Source: Candidatus Sericytochromatia bacterium
GTDB lineage: Bacteria; Cyanobacteriota; Sericytochromatia; UBA7694; JACMQJ01
NCBI GenBank assembly: GCA_046328015.1
Contig: JAXLXH010000001.1
Location: forward strand, 796,131-860,130
DNA: 64,000 nucleotides
Direction of reading: 5' to 3'
Shown here piece after piece: positions 3,268-55,699 of the stretch; position 1 is the first letter of the stretch; each line of letters starts with the position of its first letter. Both the position numbers and the translations under genes were made by a program. The notes under the pieces were generated by a model. It was not told the DNA's origin, did no database searches, and worked only from the letters and a program-made list of their open reading frames with translations.

Positions 3268-4455
3268 ATGAAAAAACTTTTACCCTTTATATTAGCTTTA
3301 TCAATATTTTCTTGTTCGCAAAAAATTGATACAAATGATTTTATTTCTAATGATAGTGAAATTCAAAGTAATACAGAAAAAAAAGCTAAATGGACTGTAA
3401 TGGTTTATATGTCTGGAGATAATGATTTAGAAGAATATATTGTAAAAGATTTAGAAAAAGAATTAGGCTCAGTTGGTTCTACAGATGCTATTCAGGTAGT
3501 AGCAATTGCTGATAGAAATGAAGGTTATGATACTAGTAGAGGCGATTGGAAAACCACAAAATTATTCCATATCAATAAGGGTTTAAAAGCAACATCTGAA
3601 AGTGCTGTAACTGATTTAGGTGAAAAAAATATGGGAGATCCAAAAACTTTTTCTGATTTTATAGATTGGAGTAAAAAAAATTATCCTGCTGAAAATTATG
3701 CTTTATATATGTGGGGTCATGGTTGGAACTGGCATAAAGGTTTTACAATGGAAGATAAAACTAATAAAGACTCTTTGGATATGCACGAGGTAAAATCTGT
3801 TTTTGATAAAATAGGTAAAATAGATATGATTGCTTATGATGGTTGTAATATGGCTTCTGTAGAAGTTGAAGCTTTATGGTATGGAAAAGCAAAAGCTATA
3901 GTTCATTCTCAAGAATATGTAGGTTGGGATGGAATCGAGTACGACACTGTTTTGAAAGCATTAAATAAAAATCCTAATATGTCCGCAGAAGAATTAGCTA
4001 TTATTACAAATAAAAGTGCTAGTGTTAATAAAGAAAAAACAGGTTCAGCGGTTATTCTAAATGAAAAATATGGAAACCTTTTAAAAACTATTGATGATTG
4101 GTCTGTAGCTCTAAAAAAAGGACTAAAAGATAATATTAAAAATTATGATAAAGCCTTTTCTAAATCTCAACATTTTGTAGAAGATCATGAAAATAAAGAT
4201 TTATATGATTTAGCACAAAAAATTAGTGAAAATGTAACTGACCCTGTTATAAAAGAAAAAAGTCAGAAAGTAATGGATGCCGTTAAATCTGCTGTTATAG
4301 ATGAGTGGCATATAGAAAAGCAATATCCTAATGTTCATGGCATTACTATTTCTAAAGTAAAACCTACTGATGAACAAAGACAATATTATAAAACCTTGGA
4401 TTTTACTAAAAAGGTATCTAATTGGGATAGCTTTTTAACTGAATATAATAAATGA
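3268..4455 (+). CDS. Clostripain-family (C11) cysteine peptidase, lipoprotein
   Basis: Lipobox IFSC; KWTVMVYMSGDNDLE; catalytic His in WGHG and Cys in YDGCNM. Confidence 0.9.
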   Translation: MKKLLPFILALSIFSCSQKIDTNDFISNDSEIQSNTEKKAKWTVMVYMSGDNDLEEYIVKDLEKELGSVGSTDAIQVVAIADRNEGYDTSRGDWKTTKLFHINKGLKATSESAVTDLGEKNMGDPKTFSDFIDWSKKNYPAENYALYMWGHGWNWHKGFTMEDKTNKDSLDMHEVKSVFDKIGKIDMIAYDGCNMASVEVEALWYGKAKAIVHSQEYVGWDGIEYDTVLKALNKNPNMSAEELAIITNKSASVNKEKTGSAVILNEKYGNLLKTIDDWSVALKKGLKDNIKNYDKAFSKSQHFVEDHENKDLYDLAQKISENVTDPVIKEKSQKVMDAVKSAVIDEWHIEKQYPNVHGITISKVKPTDEQRQYYKTLDFTKKVSNWDSFLTEYNK

Positions 4456-5567
4456 AGAAATTTATTGATTTAATAGAAGAAAATAAAAAAAGCATCAAAG
4501 AAATTAGTATTTCTGAATTATTACAAAAAGAAAATTATACTTTAATAGATATTAGAGAAAAAGAAGAAGTAGAAGAAGGTTTTATAGAAAATTCTATTCA
4601 TATTTCAAGAAGTTTTTTAGAACAAAAAATAGAAGAGTTTTATCCAGATAGAAATAGTTTTTTAGTTTTATATTGTGCTAGTGGTAATAGGTCTGTTTTA
4701 GCTTGTAAAAGCTTAATAGAAATGGGCTATAAAAATAGTTACTCTCTAAGTGAAGGTATAAATGGTTGGAAAAATAAAGGTTATAAAATAATAAAACCTC
4801 AAAAAGACGATTTAACTAAAAATGAATTATTAAGATACAATAGACAAATTATTTTACCTGAAGTTGGTAAAAAAGGACAAAAAAAACTTTTAAAAGCTAA
4901 AGTACTTATTATTGGTGCAGGTGGTTTAGGTTCTCCAGTTTGTTATTATTTAGCAGGTGCAGGGGTTGGAACTTTAGGCATAATAGATAAAGATATAGTA
5001 GATTTAAGTAATCTTCATAGGCAAATTATACACACTACATCCAGAGTAGGTTTTTATAAAACAGAATCTGCTAAAGAAAATATTAAACAATTAAACCCAG
5101 ATATTAATGTAATTACTTATAATGAAGAAATAACAGAAAAAAATGCTCGTGAAATAATAAAAAATTATGATTTAGTAATAGATGGAAGTGATAATTTTAA
5201 AACTAAATATTTAATCAATGATATTTGTTTTGAGTTAAATAAACCTAATGTTTATGCAAGTATTTCTAAATTTGATGGTTATTTAAGTGTTTTTGATAGT
5301 AATGATAATACGCCTTGTTATAGATGTTTTTTTCCAGAAGCTCCTAATACCAAAATACAAAACTGTTCTGAAGCAGGTGTTTTGGGTGTAATGGCAGGAA
5401 CTATGGGGATTTTACAAGCAACCGAAGCCATAAAAGTTATTTTGGGAATAGGTGAAATTGTAAAAAATAAAGTTTTAGTTTATAACTCCTTAGATACTTC
5501 TTTTAGAGAAATAAAATTGAAAAAAAATAAAAATTGTCTTTTATGTGGAGATAAAAAAGCTATATAA
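4452..5567 (+). CDS. moeB: MoeB/ThiF-family adenylyltransferase with N-terminal rhodanese domain
   Basis: Rhodanese loop YCASGNRS; RYNRQIILPEVG; GAGGLG; SNLHRQ; CYRC and CLLC zinc sites. Confidence 0.88.
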   Translation: MKKFIDLIEENKKSIKEISISELLQKENYTLIDIREKEEVEEGFIENSIHISRSFLEQKIEEFYPDRNSFLVLYCASGNRSVLACKSLIEMGYKNSYSLSEGINGWKNKGYKIIKPQKDDLTKNELLRYNRQIILPEVGKKGQKKLLKAKVLIIGAGGLGSPVCYYLAGAGVGTLGIIDKDIVDLSNLHRQIIHTTSRVGFYKTESAKENIKQLNPDINVITYNEEITEKNAREIIKNYDLVIDGSDNFKTKYLINDICFELNKPNVYASISKFDGYLSVFDSNDNTPCYRCFFPEAPNTKIQNCSEAGVLGVMAGTMGILQATEAIKVILGIGEIVKNKVLVYNSLDTSFREIKLKKNKNCLLCGDKKAI

Positions 5568-5675
5568 GACTAAAATCTTAAACTTTATATTAAAACTTTT
5601 TATCAAAGCTTTCAAAATAACTAAAATAGTGGTTTAATATGATTTTGGAATGATTTTTTTAGGTTTTTAGTTTAG

Positions 5676-7025
5676 ATGTTTAACCCAAACTTAGTAGAAA
5701 AATTTAGATTTGTTTCTTATGAATTTGATGAAAATACTTTTATCGCAAAATTAAATTATGCGTTTGATGACAATTATTTTTTTACCGAACAAATAGCTTT
5801 TAATAATGCTAATACTGTTTTTGATGATGAAAAAAGAAAAGCCTTAGATTTATGTCTGAAAAATCTTCATTTAGTAGCAGGTTCTAGTTATTACAAAGCT
5901 GCTATTCCACCAAAAATAGTAATAGAAAACCAAGAAATAACAAAAGAAACTTCAGATTTTATGCAAAAATTATATTTAAATGGATTAGGTGAGTTTGCTT
6001 ACAGAAACAATTTAGATTTAAAAGAAAAACTTATTTTTCCTTACTCCGATAAATCACAAGCAGAACCTTCAAATATATCCTTAAAAAGAAGAACTGCCGT
6101 TACTGTTGGAGGGGGTAAAGATTCTATTGTAACTATAGAATTATTAAAGAAAAAAAATGAAGACATTATTTTATTTTCAGTAGGAAATCCTAAGGCTATA
6201 AAACAAACTGTAGAAGTTTCTGAATTACCACATATAACTGTTACCAGAACTTTATCACCTGTTCTTTTTGAATTAAATGCTCAAGGAGCTTATAATGGTC
6301 ATGTTCCAATCTCTGGAATAATAGCTTTTATTTTAGCTTGTTCTTCAATCATCTATGGTTTTGATAGTGTGGCTATGTCTAATGAACGTTCTGCAAATGT
6401 TGGTAATCTAATCAGAGATGGCTTAGAAATAAATCATCAATATAGCAAAGGCTTAGAATTTGAAACAGATGTATCTAACTATTTTCAATCTCATATAATG
6501 AAAAATTTTAATTATTTTTCTTTTCTAAGACCTCTTTCAGAATTAGGTATAGCAAAAATTTTTAGTAAATTTGAAAAATATCATAGTGTTTTTACTAGTT
6601 GTAATGCAGCGTTTAAAATACAACAAGATAAAAGAGTTGATAGATGGTGTCTAAATTGTGATAAATGTAGATTTGTATTTTTAGCTATTGCTCCTTTTTT
6701 AAGTAAAGAAAAAATGTTAAATATTTTTGGAAAAAATTTATTAAATGATGAAACTCAAATAAAAGGCTTTGAAGAACTTATAGGTATTTCTGGACATAAG
6801 CCTTTTGAATGTGTAGGAGAAGTAGAAGAGTGTAATGCTTCCTTTGGGTTACTAAATAAACAAGATGAATGGAAAGATGATATTATGGTAAAAATTTTTA
6901 GAGAAAAAGCTTTGCCTCAAATTAGTAATTTAGATGAAATAATAACTAAGACCTTTAATCTTTCTGATAAACACAGATTAAACACTGATTATTTTAAGCT
7001 TTTAAGTGAAAATTCAAATTTTTAA
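5676..7025 (+). CDS. murL: UDP-MurNAc-L-Ala-L-Glu epimerase MurL
   Basis: Motifs LHLVAGSSYYKAAIP, GGGKDS, YNGHVP, SNERSA, NHQYSK, FTSCN, WCLNCDKCRF, HKPFECVG; directly upstream of a MurD-type ligase. Confidence 0.85.
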   Translation: MFNPNLVEKFRFVSYEFDENTFIAKLNYAFDDNYFFTEQIAFNNANTVFDDEKRKALDLCLKNLHLVAGSSYYKAAIPPKIVIENQEITKETSDFMQKLYLNGLGEFAYRNNLDLKEKLIFPYSDKSQAEPSNISLKRRTAVTVGGGKDSIVTIELLKKKNEDIILFSVGNPKAIKQTVEVSELPHITVTRTLSPVLFELNAQGAYNGHVPISGIIAFILACSSIIYGFDSVAMSNERSANVGNLIRDGLEINHQYSKGLEFETDVSNYFQSHIMKNFNYFSFLRPLSELGIAKIFSKFEKYHSVFTSCNAAFKIQQDKRVDRWCLNCDKCRFVFLAIAPFLSKEKMLNIFGKNLLNDETQIKGFEELIGISGHKPFECVGEVEECNASFGLLNKQDEWKDDIMVKIFREKALPQISNLDEIITKTFNLSDKHRLNTDYFKLLSENSNF

Positions 7026-7046
7026 AAATAATAGCACCTATTTTTT

Positions 7047-7127
7047 GTAAAAAATGTTTTTTTGGACACCATCGTTGGGGGCGTAATCCCTCAATTACTC
7101 AGAAGAAAATCTTCTAGTAATTCTATA
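7047..7127. repeat. MITE-end remnant plus hairpin
   Basis: TTTTTTGTAAAAAATGTTTTTTTGGACACC resembles the right end of the 29803-29904 element; followed by hairpin AATTACTCAGAAG...CTTCTAGTAATT. Confidence 0.55.
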
Positions 7128-7228
7128 AGATTAAAAATAAAAACAAAAAGATTTATTTTTATAATTATTTGTAATATACTTTTAGTTTTTAATGTTCAAA
7201 TGTTTTTTAATTTTATGGGTATATAAAA

Positions 7229-8593
7229 ATGCGTATTCAAGATCTTAAAGATAAAAAAGTTGGAATTTGGGGCTTAGGAGCTGAAGGTTGGTCAACCCTT
7301 AAATTATTAAGAAAAAAATTCCCCGCTACTATTTTTACTTTATTAAATGATACTCATTTTTCTGAAGAAATGGAACAAACCTTAAAACAAGATCCTTTTT
7401 TAGAATTGGTTATCGGAGAAGAAATAGATAAAAAAGCATCTTCTTTAGATGTAATAATAAAATCACCAGGGGTAAGTTTTTATAAAGAACCTATCCAAAA
7501 TGCCTTAAAAAATGGTGTTTATTTTACTTCTGCAACAAAATTATGGTTTGCAGAACATCAAAATGATACCACTGTTTGTATAACAGGAACTAAAGGGAAA
7601 AGTACTACTTCTAGCCTTGTAACACATTTTTTAAGAAATGCAGGAAAAAGAGTAACTTTGGGTGGAAATATTGGTACCCCAATGTTAGATATGTTTGATG
7701 TAGAACCTAAGCCAGAAATATGGGTTATGGAACTTTCTAGTTATCAACTAACAGATTTTGAAGGTTGTTCTCCAACTGTAGCCTTATTATTAAATCTTTT
7801 TCCAGAACATTTAGATTGGCATAAAGGTGTTGAAAACTATTATAAAGATAAAACCAATGTTTTTTCTTATCAAAAAGATAATAGCTTTGCTGTAATAAAT
7901 AAAATAGATAAAAATACTAATTTATATTTAAAACCAGAAAATTTAAAAAACCCTGTATATTTTAATGATAAAAATGGTTTTTATGTAGAAGATGGTTATG
8001 TATGTTATCAAGATAAAAAACTTTTACATGCTTCAGAAGTTCCAATTCCTGGTGAACATAACTTATCTAATATTTGTGCCGCTTTAACTGTAGTAAAATC
8101 TTTAGGAATTGATTTTGAAAAATGCTATAAATCAGTTTCAAGTTTTAAAGGTTTACCTCATAGACTCTATCCTTGTGGAAAAATAGATAACAAATTATTT
8201 ATTGATGATAGTATTTCAACTACTCCACAATCTGCTGTAGCAGCTATGGAAACTCATAAAGATAAAAAAATTACTATTTTATTAGGTGGTTTTGATAGAG
8301 GGTTAGATTTTTCTGAACTAGCTGAATATGTAATAAATAAAAATATTCATGCTGTTATAACTATGCCAGATAATGGAGTAAGAATTGCAGAAGAAATAAA
8401 AACTCGTTTATCAAAAAGTAATGCAACTACTATATTAAAAGAATCCTCTTCTTTGGAAGAAGCTGTTAAATTGGCTAAAGAAATTACACCAGAAAATGGA
8501 GTTGTAATTTTATCTCCTGGTTCACCTAGTTATGGTAAGTTCAAAAATTTTGCTGAAAGAGGTGATTTTTTTGCTAAATATGCAGGTTTTTAA
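7229..8593 (+). CDS. murD: MurD-type UDP-MurNAc-L-Ala:glutamate ligase (probably MurD2, L-Glu specific)
   Basis: WGLGAEG, KSPGV, ITGTKGKSTT, GGNIG, ELSSYQ, NLFPEHLDWH, GLPHRL, DDSISTTP, LSPGSPSYGKFKNFAERG; adjacent to murL. Confidence 0.9.
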   Translation: MRIQDLKDKKVGIWGLGAEGWSTLKLLRKKFPATIFTLLNDTHFSEEMEQTLKQDPFLELVIGEEIDKKASSLDVIIKSPGVSFYKEPIQNALKNGVYFTSATKLWFAEHQNDTTVCITGTKGKSTTSSLVTHFLRNAGKRVTLGGNIGTPMLDMFDVEPKPEIWVMELSSYQLTDFEGCSPTVALLLNLFPEHLDWHKGVENYYKDKTNVFSYQKDNSFAVINKIDKNTNLYLKPENLKNPVYFNDKNGFYVEDGYVCYQDKKLLHASEVPIPGEHNLSNICAALTVVKSLGIDFEKCYKSVSSFKGLPHRLYPCGKIDNKLFIDDSISTTPQSAVAAMETHKDKKITILLGGFDRGLDFSELAEYVINKNIHAVITMPDNGVRIAEEIKTRLSKSNATTILKESSSLEEAVKLAKEITPENGVVILSPGSPSYGKFKNFAERGDFFAKYAGF

Positions 8594-8594
8594 T

Positions 8595-8963
8595 ATGAAA
8601 AAAATATTAAAAAAAATATTATTGTTTTCTGTTTTTTTACTTAATTTTTCTTGTTACCAAATAAAAGAAGAAGTGGAATTTAAAGATACTTTTGATCTTT
8701 TGGAAAGACAAAATAAAAAAACTATTTCAGAACAATTAAGAATAAGATTTGAGAAAATAGAAGAGTTAAAAAATAATATTCGTAAAATAGAAAATTATAA
8801 TAAAAAATTTTTAGTAAAACTTGATTTTGAAAAAGAAGGTTTTAGTAAGACAGAAGATATTTATAATAATATAGAAAAAAATAAAGAATTAATTAGAAAT
8901 TATAATTTTCAAATAAAAAAACTAAAGATGGAGATAAATATTATAAATGGTGAGATTCCATGA
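8595..8963 (+). CDS. Hypothetical coiled-coil lipoprotein
   Basis: ATG 8595 just after the murD stop gives MKKILKKILLFSVFLLNFSC (lipobox-like). Confidence 0.6.
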   Translation: MKKILKKILLFSVFLLNFSCYQIKEEVEFKDTFDLLERQNKKTISEQLRIRFEKIEELKNNIRKIENYNKKFLVKLDFEKEGFSKTEDIYNNIEKNKELIRNYNFQIKKLKMEINIINGEIP

Positions 8964-34374: not shown

Positions 34375-34470
34375 GGGTATCCAAAAAGTAGTTTTTTACA
34401 AAAAATGTTTATGTCAAACCCATTGTTTTACCCTACATTACCCCGAAGCAGAGCTTCGAGGAATTATATA
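34375..34470. repeat. MITE-end remnant plus palindromic element
   Basis: GGGTATCCAAAAAG...TTACAAAAAA matches the 7047 and 29803 ends; TACCCCGAAGCAGAGCTTCGAGGAATT resembles the 39321 and 55597 hairpins. Confidence 0.6.
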
Positions 34471-34473
34471 AGA

Positions 34474-36063
34474 TTAAAAAGGCATATCAGATAAAGGAAT
34501 ATTAGGATTTTTTTCAATAAAATAGTTTAACGACCAATCACTAGTAAATAAAATAACCGTATTTTGATTTTTATCTTTTGCTGTTACTGCTCCTACTGGT
34601 ATAGTTGGTGATACCAAAATATCAGGATCAACTTCAGGAGAAACCCATCTTAATACACTCCAATTAGTCTGTTCTAATTTAGAATCTGCATTATATTCAC
34701 TTTTTAAACGGTATTGAACAACTTCAAATTGTAAAGGACCAACAGCTCCCAAAACAGTGGTTCCTTCATAAGGTCTATTTAAATCAAATGCTTGTAAAAC
34801 ACCTTCTTCTAATAATTGAGTCAAACCTTCTTTGAATTTTTTATAGTCTGATGTATTAGGGTTTATTAAGGTTATAAAATGCTCTGGAGCAAATTGAGGT
34901 ATTTTACTATAAATAATTTTATCATCTTCTGTAAGTGTATCTCCTATTTGAAAAGCTGCATTTCCAATTAAACCAACAATATCACCTGCATAAGCCTCAT
35001 CAATAGTTTCTCTTTGTTGTCCAAAAACAGAGTGAGCACTAGAAAGACGTATTTTTTTACCAGTTCTAGAATTAGTAGCTGAAATATTTCTTTCAAATTT
35101 TCCAGAGCATATTCTCAAAAAAGCTATTCTATCTCTATGTTTTGGATCCATGTTAGCTTGTATTTTAAATACAAATCCAGAAAAAGCAGGGTTATCAGGT
35201 TGAATAATATCACCATTTTTAGATTCTGTCGGTTGAGGAGCTAAAGAGTATTTTAAAAAATAATTTAATAGTAATTCTACTCCAAAATTATTCATAGCAC
35301 TACCAAAAAATACAGGTGTAATTTCGCCCTTAATCACTTTTTCTATTTGAAATTCTTCACCAGCAATATCTAACATTTCTATTTCTTCTTTCATAGTATT
35401 ATGAAGATTTTCTGGTAATCTTTCTTTTATAATATCAGCATCCAAATCACCTATATCAACACCAGCTTTATAAGCTCCACCAATAGTTTTTTCAAAAAGG
35501 TGTACTTGTTTTGCTAATCTGTCATAAACCCCTTTAAAATCTGAACCTGTGCCTATAGGCCAATTTATAGCGTAAGTTCCTATTTTTAAAATATTTTCTA
35601 TATCATCCAAAAGATCTATAGGCTCCATAGTCGGACGATCCATTTTATTTATAAAAGTAAAAATAGGTATTTTTCTTTTACTACAAATTTCAAAAAGTTT
35701 TTTAGTTTGAGTTTCTATACCTTTTGCTGCATCAATTACCATTACAACTGCATCTACTGCTGTAAGGATTCTATAAGTATCTTCAGAAAAATCTTGGTGC
35801 CCAGGTGTATCTAATAAGTTTATTCTGTAACCACTATATTCAAATTGTAAAACAGTAGATGTAATAGAAATACCTCTTTTTTTCTCCATTTCCATCCAAT
35901 CTGAAGTAGCGGTTCTTTGATTTTTTCTAGCTCTTACTGCACCTGCTTCTTGTAAAGCTCCACCATATAATAAAAATTTCTCTGTAAGAGTTGTTTTACC
36001 CGCATCTGGGTGAGATATAATAGCAAAATTTCTTCTTTTATTTATTTCTTCTAATAAACTCAT
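34474..36063 (-). CDS. prfC: Peptide chain release factor 3
   Basis: RRNFAIISHPDAGKTT, SDWMEMEKKRGISIT, DTPGHQDFSEDTYR, GAVGPLQFEV. Confidence 0.97.
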   Translation of the reverse strand: MSLLEEINKRRNFAIISHPDAGKTTLTEKFLLYGGALQEAGAVRARKNQRTATSDWMEMEKKRGISITSTVLQFEYSGYRINLLDTPGHQDFSEDTYRILTAVDAVVMVIDAAKGIETQTKKLFEICSKRKIPIFTFINKMDRPTMEPIDLLDDIENILKIGTYAINWPIGTGSDFKGVYDRLAKQVHLFEKTIGGAYKAGVDIGDLDADIIKERLPENLHNTMKEEIEMLDIAGEEFQIEKVIKGEITPVFFGSAMNNFGVELLLNYFLKYSLAPQPTESKNGDIIQPDNPAFSGFVFKIQANMDPKHRDRIAFLRICSGKFERNISATNSRTGKKIRLSSAHSVFGQQRETIDEAYAGDIVGLIGNAAFQIGDTLTEDDKIIYSKIPQFAPEHFITLINPNTSDYKKFKEGLTQLLEEGVLQAFDLNRPYEGTTVLGAVGPLQFEVVQYRLKSEYNADSKLEQTNWSVLRWVSPEVDPDILVSPTIPVGAVTAKDKNQNTVILFTSDWSLNYFIEKNPNIPLSDMPF

Positions 36064-39248: not shown

Positions 39249-39316
39249 AATAAGTATTATTCTATCATAAAAGAAAAGTACTAAAAACACACTGTTTTAT
39301 TTTTTATTTTTATTAT

Positions 39317-39400
39317 AGAATACCTCAGAGCTCTGCTCTGGGGTTTCAGTGGGTATGGGGGCAGAGCCCCCGATACCCCGTAGGAGGTCTTAAATTCATT
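39317..39400. mobile_element. Short palindrome-bounded element (PATE/REP-like), copy 1
   Basis: AGAATACCTCAGAGCTCTGCTCTGGGGTTTCA...GGGGGCAGAGCCCCC GATACCCCGTAGGAGGTCTTAAATTCATT; homologous to 55593-55699. Confidence 0.7.
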
Positions 39401-55577: not shown

Positions 55578-55592
55578 ATTCATTCTTACTAG

Positions 55593-55699
55593 AGAATACC
55601 TCAGAGCTATGCTCTGGGGTTTCATAGGGGTACGGGGGCTCTGCCCCCGCTCCCTTCCTCCTTCGGAGTTGATACCTCGCAGGAGGTATTAAATTCATT
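55593..55699. mobile_element. Short palindrome-bounded element (PATE/REP-like), copy 2
   Basis: Same ends as 39317-39400; TATTAAATTCATTCT occurs at 55572-55586 and again at 55687-55701. Confidence 0.7.

Follow-up and report, generated by a model that had tools for sequence, protein, structure and literature searches.

The MurD2/MurL route to peptidoglycan D-glutamate (D-Glu) differs from the canonical pathway of glutamate racemase (MurI) and MurD in that glutamate is ligated first and its stereocentre inverted only then, which costs an additional adenosine triphosphate (ATP). The route has been described as limited to a few genera, found in the Xanthomonadales, a few Alphaproteobacteria and the Micromonosporaceae, and because of this narrow range MurD2/MurL has been proposed as a pathogen-specific drug target (PMC8788868). 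MurL consumes one ATP per turnover, releases adenosine monophosphate (AMP) and carries out the L-to-D conversion unidirectionally. Epimerisation has been shown for the MurL proteins of Xanthomonas, Micromonospora and Salinispora; adenylation of the Glu alpha-carboxylate has been proposed, and the epimerisation mechanism itself is only hypothesised (PMC8788868). Here we describe a murL-murD2 pair found in a 64,000-nucleotide stretch of DNA, hereafter the window, from a Candidatus Sericytochromatia bacterium (assembly GCA_046328015.1, contig JAXLXH010000001.1, positions 796,131 to 860,130). The murL gene (positions 5676-7025 of the window, plus strand) encodes a protein of 449 residues, and murD2 (7229-8593, plus strand) encodes a protein of 454 residues. 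The order is the same as in the published systems of the X. oryzae type, in which murL lies directly upstream of murD2, and both open reading frames (ORFs) are found in the positions and order given in an earlier note on this DNA, which had called a MurL-like ORF followed by a MurD-type ligase.

We consider it highly probable that the two genes form a working pair and provide the only route of the cell to peptidoglycan D-Glu. MurD2 would ligate L-Glu, not D-Glu, onto UDP-N-acetylmuramoyl-L-alanine (UDP-MurNAc-L-Ala). MurL, a QueC-like PP-loop enzyme, would then flip the ligated L-glutamate to D-glutamate with ATP, and ordinary MurE and MurF enzymes would extend the product. In the ancestor of a single Sericytochromatia family, the pair would have taken the place of glutamate racemase and canonical MurD, most probably after being acquired laterally; in the window genome, the formerly abutting murL and murD2 genes would later have been split when a short repeat element inserted between them. 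The inference drawn in the earlier note, that this lineage uses the MurL-MurD2 route, is favoured alike by the MurL profile, the specificity residues of the ligase, the gene order and the missing alternative genes. In contrast to the published hosts, the window host is a low-G+C (about 25% guanine plus cytosine), non-photosynthetic member of the Sericytochromatia that belongs to none of the genera published so far, and its two genes are split by a repeat-derived spacer of 203 nucleotides (7026-7228).

MurL is a QueC-like PP-loop protein

The protein encoded at 5676-7025 matches the NCBIfam MurL model NF041275 with an E-value of 1.6e-154 and 514.7 bits. The match is full-length (model positions 4-443 of 447), a feature common to the published systems, and the earlier call of this protein as MurL, which depended on its matching MurL profiles, stands. 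PF26298 and PF26299 are assigned to the window MurL and to all its relatives in precomputed protein-database annotation; a local scan against a Pfam-A copy that does not hold the MurL_N/C models gave no match. The PP-loop motif GGGKDS (residues 145-150) and four cysteines (Cys309, Cys325, Cys328 and Cys331) are invariant across 24 diverse homologues, and every residue that is invariant in this set is also present in the window protein. The four cysteines form a C-terminal cluster with the spacing C-x15-C-x2-C-x2-C, which we take to resemble the zinc site of QueC.

The AlphaFold2 model of the window MurL has a mean predicted local distance difference test score of 94 and a predicted template modelling (TM) score of 0.93. 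PP-loop ATP pyrophosphatases, namely QatC, QueC (2pg3 and 3bl5), Cap9, TtuA and MnmA, are the best matches of the model in a fold search of the PDB, with a target TM score of 0.66-0.67 for the two QueC entries. A sequence search of the PDB returned nothing meaningful, and no MurL structure was found there. The core fold shared with QueC-type enzymes (QueC 2pg3/3bl5, QatC 9y02 and Cap9 9nto) spans MurL residues ~140-350 and includes the PP-loop motif. MurL differs from these enzymes in sequence, the identity being only 12-15%, in the presence of an additional N-terminal beta/alpha domain (residues ~1-135) and a helical C-terminal extension, and in its substrate, which is UDP-muramyl dipeptide. 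In the model, the QueC-like PP-loop core fits the published ATP-to-AMP chemistry.

Since QueC-type enzymes form amides or nitriles via adenylation, the QueC-like fold is also what one would expect if the PP-loop protein altered the stem peptide in another manner after adenylation, for instance by amidating the Glu alpha-carboxylate to iso-glutamine, with no epimerisation; the hypothetical status of the epimerisation mechanism in the literature points the same way. We regard this as extremely unlikely. The profile matched by the window protein over its full length is that of a characterised epimerase family, and the orthologues of lineages as distant as Xanthomonas, Micromonospora and Salinispora were all shown to epimerise. 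Furthermore, amidation would leave the genome with no D-Glu source at all.

In public records, the MurL proteins of the window's clade are labelled "endonuclease domain-containing protein", "hypothetical protein" or "7-cyano-7-deazaguanine synthase". These are annotation errors, and the locus matters for the correct annotation of the family.

The ligase carries the specificity residues of MurD2

The protein encoded at 7229-8593 features three Mur-ligase domains (Pfam) and scores 342.7 bits against the murD model TIGR01087 (cut-off 212). As the only match to this model above the cut-off, it is the sole MurD-type ligase of the genome, whose three remaining Mur-ligase genes encode MurC, MurE and MurF. 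Compared with canonical MurD, represented by the E. coli enzyme (PDB 2jff and 1e0d), the window ligase keeps the three domains and the catalytic residues H183, K198, D317, T321 and S415, while the Glu pocket is changed by D182E, K319I, K348R and A414P (positions are given in E. coli MurD crystal numbering, in which Met is residue 0).

Residues at these sites have been studied in X. oryzae MurD2, where D182, K348, A414 and L416 of E. coli MurD are replaced by E197, R358, P433 and F435, respectively. E197 and R358 set the L-Glu specificity of the enzyme, and the double mutant E197D/R358K switches completely to D-Glu; conversely, the K319T change in E. coli MurD results in a gain of L-Glu use (PMC8788868). 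We compared positions 182, 319, 348, 414 and 416 in different sets of ligases, representing X. oryzae MurD2 by the residues printed in that paper and by the MurD2 proteins of Dyella, Rhodanobacter and Frateuria, genera that are named there. E. coli MurD has D, K, K, A and L at the five positions, and the window ligase has E, I, R, P and Y. Among 68 MurL-adjacent MurD proteins from other genomes, Glu occurs at position 182 in 65, Ile at 319 in 67, Arg at 348 in all 68 and Pro at 414 in 66, and position 416 is occupied by Phe or Tyr. In contrast, 30 canonical MurD proteins from the same taxonomic class feature D or N at 182, K at both 319 and 348, A or T at 414, and F or Y at 416. P414 and I319, which discriminate MurL-adjacent from canonical MurD proteins, are both present in the window ligase, which also shares the E/R/P specificity residues and an aromatic residue with the published MurD2 enzymes.

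Overall similarity follows the same partition. The window ligase is 62-79% identical to the MurL-adjacent MurD proteins of its own family and 36-44% identical to those of proteobacteria, and only 27-33% identical to the canonical MurD proteins of its own class. In a tree of 41 ligases (quick IQ-TREE search, LG+C20 model), a branch with 100% support in the Shimodaira-Hasegawa-like approximate likelihood ratio test (SH-aLRT) parts the MurL-adjacent ligases, including that of the window, from the canonical MurD proteins and E. coli MurD. The identification of the ligase as MurD2 is supported by both the specificity residues and the tree placement, and a MurD phylogeny, which had been suggested earlier as a check, groups it with MurD2 proteins and apart from the MurD proteins of its class.

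Other D-glutamate sources in the genome

The assembly that holds the window measures 5.14 Mb in 3 contigs and is 93.2% complete. No match was found in this genome to the glutamate racemase model TIGR00067 at E<=0.01, nor to the Asp/Glu racemase family PF01177 at E<=1, so that the genome differs in this respect from those with the canonical MurI and MurD route. Two class-IV aminotransferases (PF01063) are present, and both are IlvE proteins, whose scores on IlvE models (310 and 434 bits) exceed the cut-offs. On the D-amino-acid aminotransferase (Dat) model TIGR01121, the PF01063 proteins score 109 and 47 bits (cut-off 277), and no Dat is found in the genome. A search for murI, for a D-amino-acid aminotransferase and for a second murD had been recommended in the earlier note; none of the three was found.

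According to Feng et al., the mark of a MurL/MurD2 organism is reportedly a genome that contains neither glutamate racemase nor D-amino-acid aminotransferase. Both genes are missing from the window genome, as from those of the published hosts, and five relatives agree. Because MurC, MurE and MurF are present and racemase and Dat are not, peptidoglycan precursor synthesis is otherwise complete, with murL-murD2 as the only visible source of D-Glu. This matters for the metabolic reconstruction of uncultured lineages, in which "no murI" does not equal "no peptidoglycan".

The argument for the pair is built on homology, specificity residues, gene order, the lack of other D-Glu genes, the complementary phyletic pattern and the fold, and a number of points weigh against it. 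The genome is only 93% complete. The MurL score of 514.7 bits is below the NF041275 equivalog cut-off of 700 bits, a cut-off tuned to Xanthomonadales. Identity to the Rhodanobacteraceae (Dyella, Rhodanobacter and Frateuria), the family here closest to the characterised X. oryzae MurL, is only 42-45% for MurL, as it is only 36-38% for MurD2. At position 416, the window ligase has Tyr where X. oryzae MurD2 has Phe; this position is non-discriminating, as Phe or Tyr occurs in MurL-adjacent and same-class canonical MurD proteins alike. The 203-nucleotide insertion may have uncoupled the expression of the two genes. Moreover, the substrate specificities and the chemistry attributed to the window proteins would be those of the X. 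oryzae, Micromonospora and Salinispora enzymes (PMC8788868), from which they are taken by analogy.

Incompleteness of the genome is relevant to one alternative in particular, according to which the ligase is an ordinary MurD that ligates D-Glu, the D-Glu is obtained from the environment or made by a racemase encoded in the unassembled 7%, and the MurL-like protein has some other function. A further point in its favour comes from a genome of the same family (G049), which contains a weak, sub-threshold racemase-like match (E 7e-10). We find this alternative very improbable, because five of the six genomes of the family have no murI match and none has one above the cut-off, and because murL-murD adjacency is kept across phyla. 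The window ligase also bears the E182/R348 pair, shown by mutagenesis to set L-Glu specificity, and its identity to the canonical MurD proteins of the class is low.

Occurrence within the phylum and origin of the pair

We surveyed 301 sampled genomes of the phylum for profile matches to MurL and murI. Strong MurL matches (380-514 bits) are confined to the window's own family, in which MurL is present in all six genomes, with one copy cut by a contig end; the murL-murD2 pair is likewise found in 6/6 genomes, covering all five genera of the family. Genes matching murI were found in 284 of the 301 genomes. Within the family, no murI match was detected in five genomes, and the sixth is G049, with its sub-threshold match only. 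In the sister family of the same order, 10 of 13 genomes have murI, and canonical MurD occurs in every one of the 13, in some of them as fragments. Families elsewhere in the class likewise carry murI, together with canonical MurD proteins that form their own clade with E. coli MurD.

The family is named Candidatus Sericytochromatia in NCBI records, and the closest named MurL proteins and loci (68-70% identity) belong to "Candidatus Sericytochromatia bacterium". No photosystem reaction-centre genes were found in the three family genomes tested, including that of the window; one other genome of the phylum has them. These records agree with the Cyanobacteria-related lineage that had been deduced from the DNA. 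With this locus, the known hosts are joined by a non-photosynthetic lineage related to cyanobacteria, whose racemase route would have been fully replaced by MurD2/MurL.

In the unrooted MurL tree, the family forms a clade with 99% SH-aLRT support, which nests among sequences from Desulfobacula, Parcubacteria, Uabimicrobium, Myxococcota and Gammaproteobacteria. In both trees, the MurL and MurD2 proteins of the family nest among sequences from Pseudomonadota, Myxococcota, Planctomycetota and Patescibacteria. We favour the view, based on these trees and on the phyletic pattern, that the pair was acquired laterally at or before the ancestor of the family. The G+C content of murL and murD2 is about 27%, like that of the rest of the genome, so that the acquisition would be old. 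The suggestion of transfer in the earlier note is compatible with the confinement of strong MurL matches to one family of the phylum sample; the MurL tree, however, singles out neither a donor nor a direction of transfer, and to this extent speaks against it.

The matching G+C content, the presence of the pair in all five genera, and unrooted trees with no particular donor would also be expected if the pair were ancestral to the phylum or class and had been lost everywhere but in this family, with no lateral transfer. Such a history is unlikely, given that the sister family and other families of the class have murI and a canonical MurD in a separate clade with E. coli MurD, and that the family proteins nest among those of other phyla. 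In addition, the pair of the only other holder in the phylum sample is very divergent and forms a long branch of its own. Lateral acquisition is more easily reconciled with this distribution.

The second holder is the genus g120, represented by two genomes (G265 and G297; 5.5-6 Mb, 99% complete). Its MurL is only 33-36% identical and falls on a separate long branch of the MurL tree, and no murI was found. The adjoining MurD bears the E/I/R/P signature of MurD2. In G265 (locus L123, contig G265:C58), the MurL-like gene spans 3432-4829 and the MurD gene 4870-6267; the second locus is L124 (G297:C225). G265 carries psbA/psbD, and no reaction-centre match was found in G297. From its gene content, G265 looks like an oxygenic cyanobacterium that uses the MurD2/MurL route.

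Three further observations were made in the survey. In one family genome (G127; 2.6 Mb, 74% complete; locus L122, G127:C4:126000-134000), stop codons and frame changes interrupt both murL and murD2, leaving each of them in several pieces, and MurL scores lower (218 + 129 bits) because the gene is fragmented. The broken genes could reflect either pseudogenisation or an assembly error. Three genomes of another family (G063, G138 and G206; family f9, genus g53; ~1.9 Mb, 98-99% complete) have neither a murI nor a MurL match, and their D-Glu source fits neither route. Some large cyanobacterial genomes in which murI is present also encode distant MurL-like paralogues (~137-145 bits, 28% identity), as exemplified by locus L125 (G041:C1, 2817-4214), with similar matches in family f14; at L125, the one locus examined, no adjacent murD was found.

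Occurrence across bacteria

At E<=0.001, the window MurL is matched by at least 7997 protein clusters of the 8000 scored candidates, and at least 593 species-representative genomes encode a MurL relative. Alphaproteobacteria, Methylomonas, Rhodanobacteraceae, Solirubrobacteraceae, Myxococcota and Gracilibacteria are among the MurL-bearing genomes listed. In 75 of 80 genome loci, drawn from many phyla, the gene that directly follows murL is a murD homologue; among the five loci that depart from this order, three are contig ends. Within the window's family, the two genes are neighbours in every relative. The literature searched for MurL contained no mention of Sericytochromatia and, for other phyla, nothing beyond reviews.

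The window's family adds a host lineage to a two-enzyme pathway that was already known; no new mechanism is involved, and the finding is only mildly surprising. The earlier note had described the lineage as unexpected. The route is present there and its range is extended, but the word is too strong given how widespread MurL homologues are in databases. On balance, we think it probable that murL-murD2 is a transferable two-gene cassette, which displaced murI and canonical murD at least two times within Cyanobacteriota, at the base of the Sericytochromatia family and independently in g120. If so, the route would not be the rarity that the literature describes but an alternative that is common and recurs across bacteria, and its use as a narrow-spectrum antibiotic target would be weakened. 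The locus thus matters for judging the real breadth of spectrum of MurD2/MurL inhibitors.

The spacer, a dispersed repeat and the genomic setting

The start of murD2 lies 203 nucleotides downstream of murL, on the same strand. In four relatives of the family with intact genes (loci L118-L121), there is no spacer and murL either adjoins murD2 directly or overlaps it, and among the family relatives compared, the spacer is found in the window genome only. Positions 7085-7137 of the spacer are 83% identical over 53 nucleotides (blastn) to positions 66-118, the 3' half, of the consensus of a 118-nucleotide repeat. The remnant of a miniature inverted-repeat transposable element (MITE) end, noticed earlier between the two genes, corresponds to this truncated and degenerate copy.

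The 118-nucleotide repeat is present in the genome in 114 copies of at least 100 nucleotides and as 74 shorter matches. Its consensus features three G+C-rich hairpins (-61.6 kcal/mol, z -7.0) and ends in GAATTCTATAAGATTAAAA. In addition to the spacer copy, the window contains matches at 34436-34480, 39307-39372 (minus strand) and 55590-55695 (minus strand); perfect copies are found at loci L126 and L127. No Rfam family was found for the window or for the two perfect copies. The repeat could be either a MITE or repetitive extragenic palindromic (REP)-like element, or a small-RNA family. None of 200 shuffled sequences folds as well as the spacer (z -3.9). A pattern scan revealed no canonical intrinsic terminator in the spacer, and promoter-like sites are no more frequent there than in the shuffles.

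The G+C content of the window is about 25%. The genes moeB, located upstream of the pair, and methylmalonyl-CoA mutase, located downstream, were considered as members of the same unit and ruled out, as the synteny of the flanks is not kept in relatives. A small ORF (8592-8963) begins at the stop codon of murD2, and the sequence starting at an internal Met (MKKILKKILLFSVFLLNFSC...) resembles a lipoprotein signal peptide. A longer ORF, called from position 8532, overlaps the 3' end of murD2.

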